Notes: generated by a model not told the origin, from the sequence alone. DNA of 54,548 nt from Chloroflexota bacterium (GCA_010092845.1 JAADYW010000014.1:1-54548); one strand, 5' to 3'. Positions 7,792 to 15,021 are shown, counted from the stretch's first letter. Numbers and translations are program-made.

Positions 7792-9137
7792 TCAAGACAC
7801 TCATGTTTGCTAAGCCGCATCGTGTCGCCTGGCTGACGCTAGTGGCTGCTTTCGTAATCTTCTGTATCGTGGCTGTGGGAATGGTCCAGCTTGTCCAGTA
7901 TGTGTTGTTCGACTGGACAACGAACCTGGAGACGACGGTTCATGTGGCACGTGGCACGCTGGTGGTCCGGAGTGCGGCCGATCCCAACGAGCATGCCGTG
8001 AGCTTGTGGCGGCAGATTGATCCTGGCGATCGTATTCGCACGGATGAGCTGTCGCAGGGGCATCTGACCTTTCGTGACCCGATTAACAGTGAGGTGGTTG
8101 TGGCCACTGTTCAATTGATTGCAGGGAGCGAAGTATCGATCAAGCAGTCGTCACGCCCGCGGTTTCTGGGTGACGGCCCTTTTTCGATTCGGCTGGAGGA
8201 CCTGATTGGCGAGGTTGAGATTACCATCTCTCCGAAGCTGGAGCGAGACGTGCGCGTCGAACTACGGACCAACGACCAGAAGGTACTCCTTAATGAGGCC
8301 GGGCTTTACCGGCTACGCGGCGAAACCGAGTCGCTACGGGTGACGGTGCACCGCGGAAGTGCGCTGTTGATCAACCAGGTGTCTCAGAACAAACTGGTCG
8401 AAGCCGGCGAGACAGGAACCAGTGGACGGTCCGTTGCACCCTACGTTGTCGAAGTAAACACTGCGAACCTGGTGACAAATAGCTATTTTCTGCCTGCGGG
8501 AGATGACCAGCTCCCTACGGGCTGGGGCTGCAGCGATGATCCAGATCCTGTGCTTGATCCTGAAACTGGCAACCCCGTTCCCCAACCTGCGGGCGAGTTC
8601 GCGGCTACGTTTTTCCAGGGCCGGCATACAGTACATATCAAGCGTGATGCCGATCGAACACTGGACCATTCTGAAACGCTCTGTACCCAGATTGTCAATC
8701 ACGATGTGAGCCAGTATGATAGCCTTCGCGTCCGGGCAACGATGTATCTTGAGTCCCACTCGCTGCCGGGCTGTGGCGAGCGCGCATCTGAGTGTGTGAT
8801 GATGTTGCGTGTTCGCTATATTGACCAGCAAGGGGTGCGCCGTACCTGGCTGCATGGCTTCTACGTTCACTATGATGAGAATCTGGGTTGGCCATTGCGG
8901 TGCGATACATGTGATCAGAATCATGAGCATGTGAATCCGGGCACCTGGTTTGTCTTTACTTCCGAGGATCTCATCCAGGATCTGCCGCCAGATCTACAGG
9001 CCAGGCGGCCTGTGGAGATTGTCGATGTTCAGTTCGACGCATCGGGTCACAAATATGAAGCTTATATTGGCGAGCTATCCGTGTTGGCGTCCTCGTCCGC
9101 CGCAGAAGTGGCGTCCAACGACGTCGTAACCGAATGA
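7788..9137 (+). CDS. Single-pass membrane protein with a FecR-like domain and a Cys-rich extracellular beta-sandwich
   Basis: N-terminal TM helix, then GDRIRTD...LRVTVHRGSA...VEAGE (FecR-like). The C-terminal domain begins NLVTNSYF and has several Cys. It overlaps acyP by GTGA. Confidence 0.7.
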   Translation: MIKTLMFAKPHRVAWLTLVAAFVIFCIVAVGMVQLVQYVLFDWTTNLETTVHVARGTLVVRSAADPNEHAVSLWRQIDPGDRIRTDELSQGHLTFRDPINSEVVVATVQLIAGSEVSIKQSSRPRFLGDGPFSIRLEDLIGEVEITISPKLERDVRVELRTNDQKVLLNEAGLYRLRGETESLRVTVHRGSALLINQVSQNKLVEAGETGTSGRSVAPYVVEVNTANLVTNSYFLPAGDDQLPTGWGCSDDPDPVLDPETGNPVPQPAGEFAATFFQGRHTVHIKRDADRTLDHSETLCTQIVNHDVSQYDSLRVRATMYLESHSLPGCGERASECVMMLRVRYIDQQGVRRTWLHGFYVHYDENLGWPLRCDTCDQNHEHVNPGTWFVFTSEDLIQDLPPDLQARRPVEIVDVQFDASGHKYEAYIGELSVLASSSAAEVASNDVVTE

Positions 9138-9784
9138 AAGCCAATGCCTCGTTCCCGAAGCGAGACCCATTCTTCGTTGCCGATGATGATATGGTCCAGC
9201 ACGGCGATATCCATCAGCTTCCCGGCCTCAACCAGATCATGGGTGAGGGCGATATCCTCTGGCGAAGGCGCGGCGGAGCCTGACGGGTGGTTATGCACAA
9301 CGATGATGCCGGCGCTATTGTGTTGGATTGCGCTCCGGAACAACTCCGCGATCCGGACGACGGTGCTGTTCAAGCTGCCGATATAGACGGTATTGACGTC
9401 CACAACATGATTCTGAGTGTCGAGCAGTACTACGATTAGATGCTCTTGCCGCAAGCCGCTGAACTGCCTGCGCACCAGATCGAAAACATCCGACGGACGC
9501 CGAATTACAGTGCGTGGGTGAGTGTGTCTCGACTGAAGGCGCCCAGCCAGCACCAGTAGTGCACTGATCTTGCTGGCGTTCACATCACCAACACCGGGGA
9601 GCCGGCGCAAGTGATCAGTGGTTACATCACCGAGCCCCGCCACGTGGTCCAGGACCGTGCTGGCAACTTGGCTGTCACCGAGTACCAGTGCGAGTAAATC
9701 GACATCGCTCAAAGCGTCAAAACCATTTTCGAAGGCTTCTCGTCGTAGCTCGGGAAGGTCATGCTTCCGGTCAGGTAGCTTCAT
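9062..9784 (-). CDS. radC: RadC family JAB/MPN domain protein
   Basis: ALSDVDLLALVLG, HhH-like PGVG, QEHLIVVLLD and HNHPSG....SPED...LDHIIIG motifs. The start could be at 9817. Confidence 0.92.
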   Translation of the reverse strand: MKLPDRKHDLPELRREAFENGFDALSDVDLLALVLGDSQVASTVLDHVAGLGDVTTDHLRRLPGVGDVNASKISALLVLAGRLQSRHTHPRTVIRRPSDVFDLVRRQFSGLRQEHLIVVLLDTQNHVVDVNTVYIGSLNSTVVRIAELFRSAIQHNSAGIIVVHNHPSGSAAPSPEDIALTHDLVEAGKLMDIAVLDHIIIGNEEWVSLRERGIGFHSVTTSLDATSAADEDANTDSSPI

Positions 9785-9822
9785 CGCTGATAATCCGATA
9801 ATTGCGTTGGTTTCCATGCGCA

Positions 9823-9831
9823 TGCTATACT
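9823..9831 (+). promoter_or_regulatory. Extended -10 promoter for the 9882 gene
   Basis: TG-C-TATACT about 50 nt upstream of an AGGAGA RBS and ATG. Confidence 0.4.
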
Positions 9832-9881
9832 TTCACGATGATAATGCATTTATCGGGAATTTTCAGGAGACCGCAAACCGC

Positions 9882-10469
9882 ATGGATCAGGCAACGCTCA
9901 ACAATATCATTTTGGTTATGGTCACTATTGTGGGGGCGGTTTTCACGGCGTTCTCGGTTGCTTTTGTAATCTGGACGTACAACGACATGAAGGCCCGCTC
10001 GCGGGACCCTCTGGCGCAGATCGCGGCGGCATTGGTGGTGGCTGTCCTCAATGTATTTGGCTTGATTATCTATGTGATGCTGCGCCCCCGCGAAACTCTG
10101 GTCGATGCCTACGAGCGTTCACTTGAAGAAGAAGCGCTTCTGCAAGAGATAGAGGAAAAGCCCGCCTGCCCTGGGTGTGGCAGACCGACCCAGAATGCCT
10201 GGCAAATCTGCCCTTATTGTCACACGCGCCTCAAACAGCCATGTATCAACTGCGGACATTTTTTGGAGCTGTCGTGGAAGCTCTGCCCCGTATGTGCAAC
10301 GGTCCAGGCCTCTGGTGTTGAGCCCAGTGACGAGCCGCTGCGGCAGCTTGGTAAAACCCCTGGCAATCCCCAGCTTAGGCGCTCACCCTATGACACCGGT
10401 ACGGCACCGGCTCAGCAAACCCCTCAGGTGCAGGAAGAGCAACTCGAATGGGTGGACAGCGAATTCTAG
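9882..10469 (+). CDS. Membrane protein with a double zinc ribbon
   Basis: AGGAGA RBS at 9865; two TM segments ending IYVMLRP; four CxxC pairs (CPGC, CPYC, CINC, CPVC). Confidence 0.85.
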   Translation: MDQATLNNIILVMVTIVGAVFTAFSVAFVIWTYNDMKARSRDPLAQIAAALVVAVLNVFGLIIYVMLRPRETLVDAYERSLEEEALLQEIEEKPACPGCGRPTQNAWQICPYCHTRLKQPCINCGHFLELSWKLCPVCATVQASGVEPSDEPLRQLGKTPGNPQLRRSPYDTGTAPAQQTPQVQEEQLEWVDSEF

Positions 10470-10524: not shown

Positions 10525-11907
10525 CTAGTGTGGATTCCGCCCTGGTGGGTCTTTGCCCTCCAAGCCCGGCGGATTGTTGTTGCTCTGGCCAAGTGGTCCC
10601 TCGTCAGAGTGCCCAGGGGTATTTCCACTGTTGCCGGGTGCCTCGTCAGATTGCCCTGGTGCATTTCGCCTATTTCCCGGTTCCGCACCCGACTGCCCTG
10701 GTGCATTTCCGCTGTTGCCCGGAGCCTCATCCGACTGCCCTGGCGCGTTCCCGCTGTTACCACGTGGCTCAACAACAATGCTCGAGGGGTCAGTAGGGCG
10801 AATAGATGTGCCTTTCCCGTTGCCAATGACTATGCCTGCGGCAAGGCTTCCAGGACTGAGGTCGTCGAGTTGGCTAAGGATTTCTCCCCACGAGCGGCCC
10901 TCCTGCCGCTCCTCAATAATCTGATCGACCTCAACATTCGCCTGGTCGGCCAAAGCATAGGCGCGACTGATCTCACCAACGCCGAGGCCTTCTGCATGCA
11001 ACGCCTCGAGTACGTCGCAATCAGTGCCATACGCATTCGCGATGATATGGAGAACTGGATGACAGTCGACTTCAGCCGGTACCATAACTTCTGGCCCGGT
11101 AGGTTGCAAGGTGTCCACTGCGATGTCTCCGGAATCAGAGAGCTCGCCGCTAATGGTGATGGTTTTCCCGGTCTCAATGCCGCGTATCTGCTCTGCATCG
11201 ACATAGGCCGTGATTCCATCGATTGTCAGGGTGCCCCCGGTTGCGTCGATCGTTTGGACTGTGCCTGTCAAATCAACGAAAATCGGGACCACCTCTTCTT
11301 CGGGGTCGGGGGTCGGGGTATCACTTGCCGTCGGAGTCGGCGATGGCGGTTGTGGTGTGGCTGACGCCGGCACCCGGGTCTCTGTCGTTGGTACTGGGGT
11401 GTACGTGACCGTCGCTGAAGCTATAGCGGCTGTTGGTGGCTCTGTCTCCGTCGCCGTGCTTGTTGATGTAGCGCTCATGTCCGCTGCGACGCGAGTTTGC
11501 CTGGTGGGGTCTTCGGTGATCTCTACAATTGATACGTCGTCTCCGGACGATCCGGGAGTGCCACCGTCATCATTGGACATGATGGCGAACGTACCACCGG
11601 CGACAATGAGGATCGTAGCTGCCGTTACCAGGATCCACGAGAGCGCATTTTGTGCTGTCTGGAGGATGGGGCTTGCTGTTGACGATCGGAGCCGCTGAAA
11701 AACCTGTTGTTCGATACGTCCTATCTGGCCTGGCTGCACTGCGGGTAAGGGAATGCCCTGAAGCTCATGTGCCATCCACAGCAGCGGCGCCAGTTCATCT
11801 GCATACCCGGGATATTTCGCAAGACATTCCTCCAGAGTAACGCCATGTGCCATCGCATCAGTGCACTCTGCCAGGATTTCTGCCAGGGATTTCTGGTCTC
11901 GGTTCAT
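10525..11907 (-). CDS. Putative membrane anti-sigma factor: N-terminal helical domain, TM helix, Thr/Pro linker, DUF5666-like beta domain, helical 'ISRAYALA' domain, GNSGNAPGQS repeats
   Basis: Overlaps the ECF sigma stop by ATGA. The N-terminus LEECLAKYP...ELAPLL is followed by the TM segment WILVTAATILIVAGGTFAI. Confidence 0.8.
   Translation of the reverse strand: MNRDQKSLAEILAECTDAMAHGVTLEECLAKYPGYADELAPLLWMAHELQGIPLPAVQPGQIGRIEQQVFQRLRSSTASPILQTAQNALSWILVTAATILIVAGGTFAIMSNDDGGTPGSSGDDVSIVEITEDPTRQTRVAADMSATSTSTATETEPPTAAIASATVTYTPVPTTETRVPASATPQPPSPTPTASDTPTPDPEEEVVPIFVDLTGTVQTIDATGGTLTIDGITAYVDAEQIRGIETGKTITISGELSDSGDIAVDTLQPTGPEVMVPAEVDCHPVLHIIANAYGTDCDVLEALHAEGLGVGEISRAYALADQANVEVDQIIEERQEGRSWGEILSQLDDLSPGSLAAGIVIGNGKGTSIRPTDPSSIVVEPRGNSGNAPGQSDEAPGNSGNAPGQSGAEPGNRRNAPGQSDEAPGNSGNTPGHSDEGPLGQSNNNPPGLEGKDPPGRNPH
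10590..10760 (-). repeat. Four imperfect 42-nt (14-aa) tandem repeats inside the anti-sigma tail
   Basis: GNSGNAPGQSDEAP / GNSGNAPGQSGAEP / GNRRNAPGQSDEAP / GNSGNTPGHSDEGP. Confidence 0.85.
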
Positions 11908-12464
11908 TCGTCCGCTCCTTGAGTAGGTTCAAGGTGCTTGGCCAGCGAACGCAATGCCCGCATCTGTAAGGCTTTGACCGCACCGACTTGTTTGCCCATC
12001 AATGCTGCTGTTTCACGAAGATCGTATCCCTGCAGGAATCGCAGCGAAACTACCTGTTGCTGTTCTGGGGTCAGTTTCCGGATATGGTGTAAGAGCTGTT
12101 CGTGGCGGATATTCTTGAATGCTGCTTGTTCCGGGTTATGGTCGGACGCGATAGTCATGTCGTGAATGGATTGAGCGGGCTGGCGGCGCGACTGCTTGCG
12201 ATAATAATCGACAACCAGGCCATGCGCCAGATGGTAGAGCCAGCCCAGGAACGGTATGCCCCGCTGCTCGTAAGCGGCTAGCTTCTCAATTGCACGGACA
12301 AATACGTCGCTGGTCATGTCTTCCGCCAGAGGACTATTGTTTACTCGCGATTGAATGTATCGATAGACGTTGTCAGCATGTTTCCGGTAAAGGGCCGCTA
12401 TGGCATGTTCATCACCCTGTTTAGCAGCCTCGACTAGTCTGGTTTCGTCTTCGTGTGCATTCAT
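11904..12464 (-). CDS. ECF sigma-70 factor, BldN-like
   Basis: Region 2 AEDMTSDVFVRA...FLGWLY; region 4 LTPEQQQVVSLRFLQGYDLRETAALMGKQVGAVKALQMRALRSL. Confidence 0.93.
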   Translation of the reverse strand: MNAHEDETRLVEAAKQGDEHAIAALYRKHADNVYRYIQSRVNNSPLAEDMTSDVFVRAIEKLAAYEQRGIPFLGWLYHLAHGLVVDYYRKQSRRQPAQSIHDMTIASDHNPEQAAFKNIRHEQLLHHIRKLTPEQQQVVSLRFLQGYDLRETAALMGKQVGAVKALQMRALRSLAKHLEPTQGADE

Positions 12465-12516
12465 TAGAGTGGCAATTCTCTTTGGACACTAGATGAATGC
12501 AGTCGGCTTGTATTGA

Positions 12517-12544
12517 ATACCGCTGCTGTAGGCAAAAAGATACG
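12517..12544 (-). promoter_or_regulatory. Putative autoregulatory ECF promoter CGTATC-N16-CGGTAT
   Basis: The minus strand reads CGTATC tttttgcctacagcag CGGTAT, ending about 50 nt before the sigma ATG. A matching copy faces the divergent gene. Confidence 0.65.
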
Positions 12545-12720
12545 AGGCTAACCCCTGTATATTAACACATCGCGAACAATTCTTATCATCTGATGGGGCA
12601 GATTTTACTGGCTTGATGACCTCTGGAACTACGAAGGCACATAATGGTTAGTGATACCCAACAATGTAACCAAGGGCATGCGATGGTTGTTTTTGCATTA
12701 ACAAAACATAACAATGATGC

Positions 12721-12748
12721 CGTAACTAATTCGCTTCTCAAGCGGTAT
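12721..12748 (+). promoter_or_regulatory. Putative ECF promoter CGTAAC-N16-CGGTAT
   Basis: CGTAAC taattcgcttctcaag CGGTAT, ending 60 nt before the ATG at 12809. Confidence 0.7.
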
Positions 12749-12808
12749 GCAGGGTACAGTCACCCAAGAAAGAAAACCGAATGTGATCCACTGGATCAAA
12801 GGAGAGGC

Positions 12809-13909
12809 ATGAAGATGCTAAAGCTTCGTTGGGGACTTCTTATCCCCATATTACTCGCGCTAGCTATCGCGCTCGTTTTGGTTCCATCAACTGGTCTGGC
12901 CCAGGATGGTGGCGAGGATGATGACGAACTCTGGGTCTATATCGAGATAGAAGGCGAAGTCGAGGCGCTCGAAGACGACTTGATCGTCGTTGATGGCTAC
13001 GAATTGGCCCCGGCGGGTGCATTCAATCCATCAACGCTAGAGGTTGGTGATTATGTAGTTGTTGCAGGCTATTTGCTGGATGATGATACCCTCTATGTCG
13101 AGTCCCTGGAAGTAGTTGAGGATTTCGATCAGGACGGCATTCTAGACAATGAAGATAATTGCCCGGAGGTGGCCAATCCTGAGCAGGAGGACACCGATGG
13201 TGACGAGGTCGGCGACGCCTGCGACCCCGACATGGTTGACAGCGACGGCGACGGTGTCGTCGATGCCGAAGAGAACTGCCCCGACGTAGCTAACTCCGAG
13301 CAGGAGGACACCGATGGTGACGAGGTCGGCGACGCCTGCGATCCCGACATGGTTGACAGCGACGGCGACGGTGTCGTCGATGCCGAGGACAATTGCCCCG
13401 ACGTAGCTAACCCCGAGCAGGAGGACACCGATGGCGATGGTGTCGGTGATGTCTGTGACAGCGATGAAGAGGATACCTGCTACTTCGAAAATCACCCGGT
13501 CGCCGAGGCAATTGCAGCCCAGTTTGACGTCAGCTATGAGGAAGTGATGGATCTGCATTGCAGTAGCGAGGGTTTCGGGAACATCAGCCGCGCCTATGCC
13601 CTGGCTGCACAGACCGATGCAACCGTGGAAGAGATCCTGGCATCGTCGAAGGAATCGGGTTGGGGCAACGTCTTGCGCGACTATGACGTGCACCCATCAG
13701 AGCTCGCTCCTGGACTTGCTGTTTCTGAGCGCAACCGCAACCAGCACCAGAACCGCGAGCATACGGGTCCCCCCGAAGACCGCGGTCGGCCTGATAATCC
13801 CGGTAATGGAAATGGTCCACCTGAGGACCGTGGCCGGCCTGACAACCCCGGCAATGGCAATGGCCCACCGGAAGGCCGAGGTCAGGGCAATGGCCGTGGC
13901 AATCGTTAG
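12809..13909 (+). CDS. Secreted acidic protein: DUF5666-like domain, thrombospondin type-3 Ca-binding repeats, helical 'ISRAYALA' domain, [16 protein letters not shown] tail
   Basis: AAAGGAGAGG RBS before ATG 12809; signal peptide ending GLA|QD; [23 protein letters not shown] repeats. Confidence 0.88.
13151..13460 (+). repeat. 117-nt (39-aa) intragenic tandem repeat, about 2.6 copies
   Basis: gagcaggaggacaccgatgg recurs at 13181, 13298 and 13415. The first two copies match at 88 of 89 nt from those positions. Confidence 0.92.
13768..13880 (+). repeat. 48-nt (16-aa) repeat [16 protein letters not shown], about 2.3 copies
   Basis: Visible in the translation; the copies differ at synonymous positions. 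Confidence 0.8.
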
Positions 13910-13940
13910 TTCGGCGTCTTGATTTGATGGAACAGCTTCC

Positions 13941-13970
13941 GCGCAGGTCCGGCACTGACCTGCGCTTTTT
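13941..13970 (+). terminator. Rho-independent terminator
   Basis: Perfect 9-bp stem gcgcaggtc / gacctgcgc, 7-nt loop, then TTTTT. Confidence 0.85.
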
Positions 13971-15021
13971 ACTCACCCACTTCCTCGATTACCAGGCTAT
14001 CACTATCGAAACTTACTACGGCAACGTATTCGACCCGCACGCCGATCTGGTGCTCGATAAGTAGATCGGTAAGTTGTTCACCGTCAATCAGAATGATGGG
14101 GACTGTATTCGGCAGGCGGGCTACGGCCAGAGCACCGCTGGAGAATCCGCTTGTCGTCAGTATCATCCCTTGATCAATATCCTCCATCGCCAGCATGTCG
14201 CCGCGAAATTGACTGACCGTCGGGCGGCCGATGTTCGATTGCATGCGCTTGACCTGGACGGCCGTGTGCACCTGCATCACGCCTACCGCAACATCAGCCA
14301 CAACATCTACCCCGCCATCTGGTCCCCGGCGGGTGACCAGGATGTTGTTGTAACCCATCTTCCCTAGAAGGCGCCCCACAAGATTCTCAAATGCAAAGGG
14401 ATCCATGTGGTTAATGACATTCAGCAGTTGTTGCTGGGCCTTGCCGCGCTGGCGAAGTGCCATCTGTGCGATGGTGTCGATTTCGTGTTCCCACTCTGCC
14501 AGGCTGAATATTCCCGGCCCATCCCGCCGGAAGGCTGAAGCCGAGCCGTGTTGCTGGATATCTCGGTAGAGCTGGGCTGAGAGCGAGGTCTCAGGTGTCA
14601 TGCTTTCGGGGTTGAGGAAGCCCCATTCGATGGCCAGGGCGGCGATGTTAGTGTAGTGCATTGGACGCCCCTCGGTCTTAAGAACCTCATAGGCGGCATC
14701 CCGGTAGGTTAGGTATTCTCCCTGTTGCTGAAAGATGGCATGATCGATGAAGTTGTCGGGTAGGGGATCCGCAGCAGTGCGTAGACGGTAGCGGCCGCGT
14801 TCCACCCGGACAAATGGCGACAGATCGCCAGTTTCTGGCTGACGACGCAGTGACCCGGTGATGACAGCGGACATCGTCTGGCGCGGCGTTTGGCCCATCG
14901 AGTCGATATAGCCGTGTTCAAGGGCCAGGCGGGTGATTTCTGAAACCGACAGAGGCCGCGGGGCCTGGCGTAGCACCTCAACAGCGGCCTGTAGGAACGT
15001 CATTCGTGCAGAATACTCCAT
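13969..15021 (-). CDS. mrr: Mrr-family (type IV-like) restriction endonuclease with two N-terminal HARE-HTH domains
   Basis: FENLVGRLLGKMGY...DGGVDVVA...AVQVKR...TTSGFS..A...LIDGEQL catalytic domain, preceded by two AA.EVL...RP...TP..T/S.SA...F.R...G...L winged helices. Confidence 0.85.
   Translation of the reverse strand: MEYSARMTFLQAAVEVLRQAPRPLSVSEITRLALEHGYIDSMGQTPRQTMSAVITGSLRRQPETGDLSPFVRVERGRYRLRTAADPLPDNFIDHAIFQQQGEYLTYRDAAYEVLKTEGRPMHYTNIAALAIEWGFLNPESMTPETSLSAQLYRDIQQHGSASAFRRDGPGIFSLAEWEHEIDTIAQMALRQRGKAQQQLLNVINHMDPFAFENLVGRLLGKMGYNNILVTRRGPDGGVDVVADVAVGVMQVHTAVQVKRMQSNIGRPTVSQFRGDMLAMEDIDQGMILTTSGFSSGALAVARLPNTVPIILIDGEQLTDLLIEHQIGVRVEYVAVVSFDSDSLVIEEVGE

Follow-up and report, generated by a model that had tools for sequence, protein, structure and literature searches.

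The 54,548-nucleotide stretch of DNA analysed here, from a Chloroflexota bacterium (GCA_010092845.1 JAADYW010000014.1:1-54548; hereafter the window), contains a sigma-factor gene of the extracytoplasmic function (ECF) type, an overlapping gene for a single-pass membrane protein and, facing away from both, a gene for a secreted protein. We favour the explanation that these genes form a compact, autoregulated ECF sigma/anti-sigma/secreted-target circuit, which we consider probable as a whole. In this circuit, the sigma factor would be held at the membrane by the N-terminal ~80 residues of its co-translated anti-sigma, lodged between sigma domains 2 and 4. Once released, it would act on two promoters, CGTA(A/T)C-N16-CGGTAT in form, which are set back to back in the 344-bp divergent region between the sigma gene and the secreted gene, one driving its own operon and the other the secreted protein. 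The outer part of the anti-sigma, borne on a Thr/Pro-rich stalk of ~95 residues, is a tethered paralog, of ancient divergence, of the product's module, made of an oligonucleotide/oligosaccharide-binding (OB) fold, a helical domain and a repeat tail. We regard this core, comprising the holding of the sigma, the two promoters and the tethered paralog, as highly probable. The tethered paralog follows directly from sequence and models, whereas the holding step is supported by a structural model with controls and by conserved gene pairing, and the two-promoter step by comparative genomics. The signal and the direction of feedback are more tentative, possible rather than probable: the shared module may mean that sensor and product recognise the same partner, an envelope or extracellular ligand, or each other, and the state of this ligand or of the product layer might then set the stability of the anti-sigma, presumably via regulated proteolysis, and hence sigma activity. 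We infer, as did a sequence-only reading of the window that preceded this work, that the anti-sigma may monitor the secreted protein or its polymer.

The sensor ectodomain and the secreted target are old paralogs. The helical domains are 32% identical (anti-sigma residues 283-418 and secreted-protein residues 229-352; BLASTP E 3e-11). The beta domains show no significant pairwise similarity (BLASTP E 3.5), and their profiles, built from six anti-sigma-type and eight secreted-type sequences, match over 64 columns (hhalign 97.4%, E 1.4e-11). These comparisons bear out the paralogy proposed in the sequence-only reading, which had also described the same order of parts in both proteins. The latter is true of the beta domain, the helical domain and the Gly/Asn/Pro tail, the tails being encoded by tandem arrays (42 nt x 3.9 at 10595-10758 in the anti-sigma gene; 48 nt x 2.4 at 13766-13878 in the secreted gene). 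The sequence-only reading overlooked, however, about 120 aa of thrombospondin type-3 (TSP3) repeats located between the beta and helical domains of the secreted protein and encoded by a 117-nt unit x 2.4 at 13151-13434. Pfam TSP_3 (PF02412) matches this protein in four stretches with E 5.7e-26 and 90.4 bits, against a gathering cut-off of 25. The anti-sigma has no TSP3 repeats and instead carries a ~95-aa Thr/Pro/Ser-rich linker between its membrane helix and the beta domain.

The AlphaFold2 (AF2) model of anti-sigma residues 200-375 (predicted local distance difference test, pLDDT, 90.0; predicted template modelling score, pTM, 0.83) shows an OB-fold barrel beside a five-helix domain. The barrel aligns with the single-stranded DNA-binding protein SSB (4dam_A; VIA-align Z 8.7, root-mean-square deviation (rmsd) 2.5, 71 aligned) and with PilY2 (3tdq_B; Z 8.2), and its best Foldseek E value is 3e-3, to RPA and YgiW. 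In folding as an OB domain it resembles DUF5666 (PF18914), a bacterial OB fold, but the window proteins are below the cut-off of this family, the secreted protein scoring 15.2 bits against 27 and the anti-sigma giving no match. Folded alone, the five-helix domain reaches a pLDDT of 86.2. It finds no clear match among solved folds: the best Foldseek E value is 0.74, the best VIA-align scores (Z 6.2 to the designed toroid 4yxy_A, rmsd 4.7, 76 aligned; Z 5.9 to the DnaD-like 2zc2_B) fall short of the level that counts for helical models, and the ESM Atlas returned unnamed clusters only, with scores of at most 0.85. Of 106 scanned members of its family, 22 match DUF433 (PF04255) over the helical domain (best E 7e-11); the window proteins lie below the cut-off (18.3 bits against 23.6 for the anti-sigma). 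To our knowledge, neither DUF5666 nor DUF433 has a known function.

No helical domain other than those of these two genes occurs in the assembly to which the window belongs (3.86 Mb, 92% complete). A tree of 30 helical domains, leaving out only segments shorter than 60 aa, places the anti-sigma-type copies (those of G000, G001 and genus g5) in one clade together with two free secreted g3 proteins (support 99/98). The TSP3-secreted copies form a separate clade (94/72), and the duplication is therefore old and not a local event. Both types of copy have been retained in g1 and g5.

The identification of the 460-aa membrane protein as an anti-sigma, already made in the sequence-only reading, is supported by the predicted binding of its N-domain, by gene coupling, by a single membrane helix and by conserved pairing. 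The sigma stop TGA overlaps the anti-sigma start ATG in an ATGA (the minus strand reads GACGAATGAACCGA), residues ~88-110 are the sole stretch with a 19-residue Kyte-Doolittle mean above 1.6, and the pair is kept in G001, of the same genus (sigma 59% identical), and in five g5 genomes (54%). The N-terminal ~80 residues match no Pfam or NCBIfam family, and the protein has no sequence match among Protein Data Bank (PDB) chains at E<=1. A family alignment shows that the N-domain is common to 37 proteins, of which none has a Pfam anti-sigma-domain match; their ectodomains comprise DUF5666 (19/37), FecR (17/37) and DUF5667 (3/37).

Prediction of the complex between the sigma and anti-sigma residues 1-95 (alignments of 41 and 37 rows, respectively; three runs and three controls), a check that the sequence-only reading had called for, gave an interface score (ipSAE) of 0.79 in each of the three runs, compared to 0.28 for the best control, a mark reached by 58 of 80 solved complexes and by 2 of 110 mismatched pairs. 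At least 85% of the contacts agree between runs, and the partner pLDDT is at least 76. In the model, residues 7-20, 41-57 and 61-76 of the anti-sigma are in contact with sigma residues 23-60 in sigma-2 and 120-180 in sigma-4. Anti-sigmas of the RsbN type (class III) are recognised by three helices with alpha-3 held between sigma-2 and sigma-4. The model sets anti-sigma helices against both of these domains, whatever the class of their fold.

The sigma factor belongs to the ECF (group IV) sigmas, with Sigma70_r2 at residues 25-94 (E 9.8e-16), Sigma70_r4_2 at residues 122-174 (E 2.4e-10) and a match to Sigma70_ECF (E 3.5e-9); TIGR02937 gives 91.5 bits against a cut-off of 42.9. Its best NCBIfam model is TIGR02952, the BldN family, with 166.9 bits compared to 101.5 for the next model; the curated cut-off, 206.45, is nevertheless not reached. 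Of the PDB chains, 6dxo_A ranks highest (110.8 bits, E 6.9e-31; next chain 55.3 bits); we take it to be sigma-BldN in complex with RsbN. The 233 homologs found at E<=1e-20 are headed by an unnamed metagenomic clade (43-97% identity), after which come actinobacterial "BldN family" proteins of Glycomyces and relatives (40-42% identity, 260-295 aa). In PMC7826278, ECF121, the BldN group, is described as entirely (100%) actinobacterial, with an N-terminal extension in all members, and BldN as not autoregulated. The window sigma has the single-pass anti-sigma at +1 that also marks this group, here the ATGA-coupled gene with one membrane helix. It differs in that sigma-2 begins at residue 25 of 186, leaving no room for an extension of ~30-130 aa, and in that the module is spread over the window's order and class. 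By the features described for the group, sequence comparison thus places it as a sister of actinobacterial BldN, not as a member of BldN/ECF121. The term BldN-like used in the sequence-only reading holds insofar as BldN provides the nearest solved and named relatives, and the resemblance noted in region 4 is borne out by the alignment to 6dxo_A, but it fails on the family cut-off, on the extension and on actinobacterial origin.

The resemblance to the Streptomyces sigma-BldN/RsbN system extends to a single-pass anti-sigma directly downstream and, according to PMC6101532, to a regulon of secreted surface proteins. Besides lacking the N-terminal pro-extension, the window sigma gene has its own predicted promoter of the cognate type, unlike BldN, and the window anti-sigma has no sequence match to RsbN. 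The chaplins and rodlins are unrelated to the target described here, a protein with an OB fold, TSP3 repeats and a helical domain, and the chaplin/rodlin parallel is an analogy only.

The pattern CGTA(A/T)C-N16-CGGTAT occurs twice in the 54.5-kb window, against 0.01 expected, once ahead of each divergent start codon. Only three matches are found in the 3.86-Mb assembly, two of them being the window sites. With up to one mismatch and a spacer of 16-17 there are 21 matches genome-wide and, on reading their context, only the two window sites (on contig C7) are intergenic and upstream of a start; relaxed matches on contigs C43 and C55 sit under short open frames only. Given only two well-placed sites in the assembly, the regulon looks essentially self-contained. 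The build, with an AAC-type -35, a 16-nt spacer and a CG-containing -10, is by sequence comparison that of ECF promoters, such as the tGTTAC-N16-CGTC of Tt-RpoE1 (PMC3397946).

Since the pattern was derived from the two window sites, the real test lies in other genomes. The G001 sigma gene is preceded by CGTAAC-N16-CGGTAA and the g5 sigma genes by GGCAAC-N16-CGGTAA. The secreted paralog of g5, which is located on another contig, has a one-base-shifted CGTAAAG-N16-CGGTAT upstream in the five genomes shown and CGGTAA at this place in a sixth, G017; the exact pattern is present in four of the five g5 genomes scanned. In other families, divergent sigma and secreted helical genes carry CGCAAC-N16-CGGTAT on both sides in G162 and CGTATC-N16-CGGTAT on both sides in G248. 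G068 has one site ahead of the sigma gene and one ahead of a convergent OB/helical secreted gene, and G114 and G170 have one site each, ahead of the secreted homolog. Over 46 loci (330,980 bp) the pattern gives 13 matches, compared to none for the reversed control, and 7 of the 13 fall in the 26 loci that were fetched after the pattern had been fixed. The shared motif and the recurrence of this design in other families support the proposal of the sequence-only reading that the secreted gene is a target of the sigma.

The sigma, the anti-sigma and the OB/helical secreted gene recur across the class with varying adjacency. In the order-level sample, the anti-sigma query has matches in 31 of 61 genomes (19/34 genera), and in the class-level sample the 86-aa secreted helical-domain query has matches in 27 of 301 genomes (22/176 genera). 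A BldN-like sigma is found within 6 kb of the secreted homolog at 4 of 14 order-level loci and within 1.5 kb at 7 of 26 class-level loci, the genes being arranged divergently, in tandem or convergently. Helical-domain anti-sigmas are present in G186 and G040 too.

Several observations weigh against the favoured circuit and are best considered together with the alternatives. The conserved three-gene synteny that the sequence-only reading had proposed as a check did not prove stable: the secreted paralog is unlinked in g5 and was not found in any of the five other genomes of the window's genus (G001-G005), and the anti-sigma query, found in G001, was unmatched in the same-genus genomes G002-G005. 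Sigma/anti-sigma complexes have already been solved, and the score of the predicted complex may partly reflect likeness to those structures. The breadth of the helical family, which counts 365 clusters at E<=1e-3 and still 56 when the limit is E<=1e-10, raises a more general doubt. Its members also occur with signal peptides and, in the same scan of 106, carry DUF5666 (32), FecR (17), DUF5667 (13) and LysM (8), and an OB/helical/tail module found on so many kinds of protein fits a general envelope address as well as a specific sensor. The circuit might thus be as proposed and the paralogy incidental, the module serving only to place proteins in the envelope, with an unrelated cue being sensed and the secreted protein a mere output without feedback. 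We judge this somewhat unlikely. The PGNSGNAPGQ tail alone is common to many unrelated FecR-type proteins, and the anti-sigma-type module exists in g3 as a free secreted protein. Furthermore, the anti-sigmas of G162, G068 and G272 keep the N-domain with a DUF5667-like or other ectodomain devoid of the OB/helical part, and in G032, G049 and G024 the repeat tail is all that the anti-sigma has in common with its neighbour, which makes the paralogy dispensable for the module. Nevertheless, g1 and g5 have diverged to the level of families and each still holds both types of copy, and a sigma, an anti-sigma with OB and helical domains and a TSP3 paralog are again found within 5 kb in G040, although neither point is decisive.

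The secreted protein could also be a co-regulator instead of a structural surface protein, one that would attach to the anti-sigma ectodomain by way of the homologous domains, shielding the anti-sigma from the first proteolytic cut and so providing negative feedback, as RseB does with RseA in E. coli or CseA in Streptomyces. Here, apart from the sigma operon itself, the predicted promoter of the sigma has a well-placed copy in the assembly at the secreted gene alone, and the product of this gene shares two domains with the anti-sigma ectodomain. This role nevertheless appears improbable to us, given that secreted homologs are found in genomes and loci without a helical-domain anti-sigma and that the calcium-binding TSP3 repeats vary in number (some three in the window, as many as about seven in G017) and look more structural or adhesive. 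We consider it very improbable that the secreted gene is a mere neighbour, transcribed independently of the sigma and sharing the motif by coincidence. The pattern was indeed taken from the two window sites prior to any counting, a sigma-70-like match (10/12) at 12562-12589 could also drive the secreted gene, and adjacency is not kept in g5 or in the same genus. Looser patterns in the whole genomes of relatives, moreover, were not above reversed controls, so that regulons cannot be listed in this way. This reading is already disfavoured, however, by the paired motif in G162 and G248, by the single motif ahead of the secreted homologs in G068, G114 and G170, by the excess over the control across the 46 loci and by the motif retained at the unlinked g5 paralog. 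The autoregulated circuit with a tethered paralog is thus the explanation we retain. Its most extended version adds a product-sensing loop through homotypic contact, or competition, between tethered and free copies, a calcium-dependent surface layer, an Anaerolineae-wide module, an undescribed BldN-sister ECF clade, a new anti-sigma N-domain, a new extracytoplasmic helical domain and a sigma-driven small RNA in the sister genus; this version we regard as unlikely.

A sensor paralogous to the target is unusual, although the switch is in other respects of an ordinary kind. The closest precedent is the clostridial sigma-I/RsgI system, in which the outer sensor domain of a membrane anti-sigma is homologous to modules of the secreted proteins controlled by the sigma. 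RsgI shares carbohydrate-binding modules with cellulosomal proteins, so that sensor and output recognise the same external material. However, sigma-I is not an ECF sigma, and neither the N-domains of RsgI nor its carbohydrate-binding modules are related to the domains described here. RsgI senses polysaccharide; the OB/helical module has no known ligand. In E. coli sigma-E/RseA/RseB there is likewise an autoregulated ECF operon with a single-pass anti-sigma, on whose outer domain a secreted protein controlled by this sigma acts. The present proteins have no homology to it, and RseB, encoded within that operon, is not paralogous to the RseA periplasmic domain. Tt-RpoE1/Tt-TolB of Thermoanaerobacter tengcongensis also comprises an autoregulated ECF sigma, an anti-sigma gene directly downstream and a promoter of like build (PMC3397946). 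It has another -10 element, another anti-sigma ectodomain and no paralogous secreted target, and serves as a reference for promoter architecture only.

ECF sigma/anti-sigma pairs are common, and for most groups the signal and the regulon are unknown. In the present case, the regulon may be readable from the DNA, as two predicted promoters and one target, and the paralogous sensor domain gives a concrete idea of what might be sensed, namely the product or its ligand. The locus would also extend the link between sigmas related to BldN and secreted surface proteins beyond Actinobacteria, to a class whose members are mostly uncultured and often filamentous and about whose envelope little is known. 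Three unannotated modules are defined, the anti-sigma N-domain, the Cys-containing five-helix domain and the PGNSGNAPGQ/Lys-rich tail, which are present in hundreds of protein clusters. We found no description of the module in the literature on BldN/RsbN, on ECF sigmas in Chloroflexi/Anaerolineae and on DUF5666/DUF5667, as far as these sources were accessible, and the accessible part of the PMC7826278 supplement text makes no mention of Anaerolineae, Anaerolineales, thrombospondin, CGGTA or CGTAAC, although a Chloroflexi ECF group may be present in its remainder.

The features of the locus are listed in Table 1. Open reading frames (ORFs), translations and sequence agree with the sequence-only reading on the ATGA coupling and on the divergence of the sigma and anti-sigma genes from a secreted gene that ends at a terminator-like hairpin followed by a T-run. 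A start of the secreted gene at 12644 is disfavoured relative to that at 12809 by the AGGAG at 12800-12804 and by the predicted promoter, which lies downstream of 12644. Cleavage of the signal peptide after Ala31 is a reading by eye.

Table 1 Features of the sigma, anti-sigma and secreted-protein locus, in window coordinates
Feature	Coordinates	Strand	Basis or remark
Anti-sigma (single-pass membrane protein) gene	10525-11907	-	460 aa
Gly/Pro/Asn repeat tail of anti-sigma, PGNSGNAPGQ-type units	10528-10782	-	Tandem array
Five-helix domain of anti-sigma, two Cys (C282, C297)	10813-11082	-	BLASTP to secreted protein
OB-fold beta domain of anti-sigma (DUF5666-like)	11092-11295	-	AF2 model, hhalign
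Thr/Pro/Ser-rich extracytoplasmic linker of anti-sigma, residues 111-204	11296-11577	-	T 21, P 15, S 11, A 11 of 95
Transmembrane helix of anti-sigma, residues ~88-110	11578-11646	-	Kyte-Doolittle 19-residue maximum 2.26
Predicted cytoplasmic helical sigma-binding domain of anti-sigma, residues 1-80	11668-11907	-	Complex model
Sigma gene	11904-12464	-	186 aa ECF sigma
Predicted ECF-type promoter, sigma/anti-sigma operon	12517-12544	-	CGTATC-N16-CGGTAT; -10 ends 52 nt before sigma ATG
Predicted ECF-type promoter, secreted gene	12721-12748	+	CGTAAC-N16-CGGTAT; ends 60 nt before ATG 12809
Secreted-protein gene	12809-13909	+	366 aa, divergent from sigma/anti-sigma pair
Signal peptide of secreted protein	12809-12901	+	Hydrophobic signal-like N-terminal stretch
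OB-fold beta domain of secreted protein	12914-13123	+	Profile comparison
TSP3 repeats of secreted protein	about 13124-13474	+	Pfam TSP_3
Helical domain of secreted protein	13481-13738	+	BLASTP to anti-sigma
Gly/Asn/Pro repeat tail of secreted protein	13739-13906	+	Tandem array
Intrinsic terminator-like hairpin	13941-13965	+	9 pairs (7 G-C), loop 7, then TTTTTACTCA; 3' of secreted gene

Additional sites of the promoter type were observed in genus g5. Intergenic CGTAA(T/C)-N16-CGGTAT lies ahead of other signal-peptide or membrane proteins at L079 (G015:C19, ~205989) and L078 (G018:C115, ~5004), the L079-type site being present in three of five g5 genomes, which suggests a somewhat larger regulon in this genus. 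In all five g5 genomes (L024-L028), a CGTAAC-N16-CGGTAT is located immediately downstream of the anti-sigma gene, in the direction of which it is oriented (5868-6100 of L024, from G015). It is followed by ~125-185 nt of conserved sequence that includes the anti-Shine-Dalgarno-like TTAGTTCCTCCTCCCTTCC and ends at a strong hairpin and T-run, GGACGGCCACGAAGCCGTCC TTTTTG; this stretch 3' of the anti-sigma gene looks like a sigma-dependent small RNA. An Rfam scan of L024 and of a part of the window (L084) gave no match at the gathering score, and no equivalent of the TTAGTTCCTCCTCCCTTCC motif was found in the window. In G001, a further motif match with a T-rich spacer like that seen elsewhere (G001:C1:14006), 320 nt upstream of a membrane-protein ORF, was ambiguous and was dropped.

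A second clade of BldN-like sigmas (L035, L036, L039 and L041), 31-38% identical to the window sigma, adjoins secreted TSP3/helical genes in other families, and all of its members end in RH(Y/H)LRG after region 4. The strict promoter pattern has no match in this clade. By eye, and not counted as evidence, L035, L036 and L040 show a CGGTAT ~50-60 nt before the secreted gene, and L041 shows one on both sides. In L039 (5580-7212, from G040), the anti-sigma beside the BldN-like sigma is split over four overlapping frames, corresponding to the N-domain with the membrane helix, a DUF5667-like part, the beta domain, and the helical domain with the tail, which reflects either assembly frameshifts or a decaying gene; the TSP3 secreted paralog lies 2.3 kb beyond the sigma. 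In the nearest relative, G001 (L023:900-5483), the gene divergent from the sigma encodes a 1527-aa protein without the helical domain, which has TSP3-like repeats, long Pro/Thr/Glu repeats, six copies of a ~95-aa unit and PD40 (TolB-like) propeller repeats. No CGGTAT-type site was seen on this gene's side of the intergenic region.

In most cases the last residues of the PGNSGNAPGQ-type tail are rich in Lys, as in APGQxKK. The tail is common, with 55-77% identity, to many otherwise unrelated proteins including FecR-domain proteins, HD-domain proteins and a sigma-fused protein, with source names such as Acidimicrobiia, Desulfarculus and Gaiellaceae, and may widely serve for sorting or for attachment to the envelope. 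The free g3 proteins (L034:5992-6900, from G007, and L042:2421-3287, from G012), placed inside the anti-sigma clade of the tree, are signal-peptide proteins of ~290-300 aa that consist of the OB + helical + GNG-tail module and are 45-50% identical to the window ectodomain. There is no sigma within 6 kb in L034, and L042 is a 5-kb contig with little surrounding sequence to check.

The genes flanking the locus (13969-15021 and 9062-9823 on the minus strand, 9618-10469 on the plus strand) are unrelated to the sigma module and encode, in this order, an Mrr-type restriction endonuclease that has two HARE-HTH domains, a JAB protein similar to RadC and a double-zinc-ribbon membrane protein. The ORF of the latter, as listed, overlaps the RadC gene, and its true start is probably later. 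The named homologs of the neighbouring proteins come from Anaerolineae.

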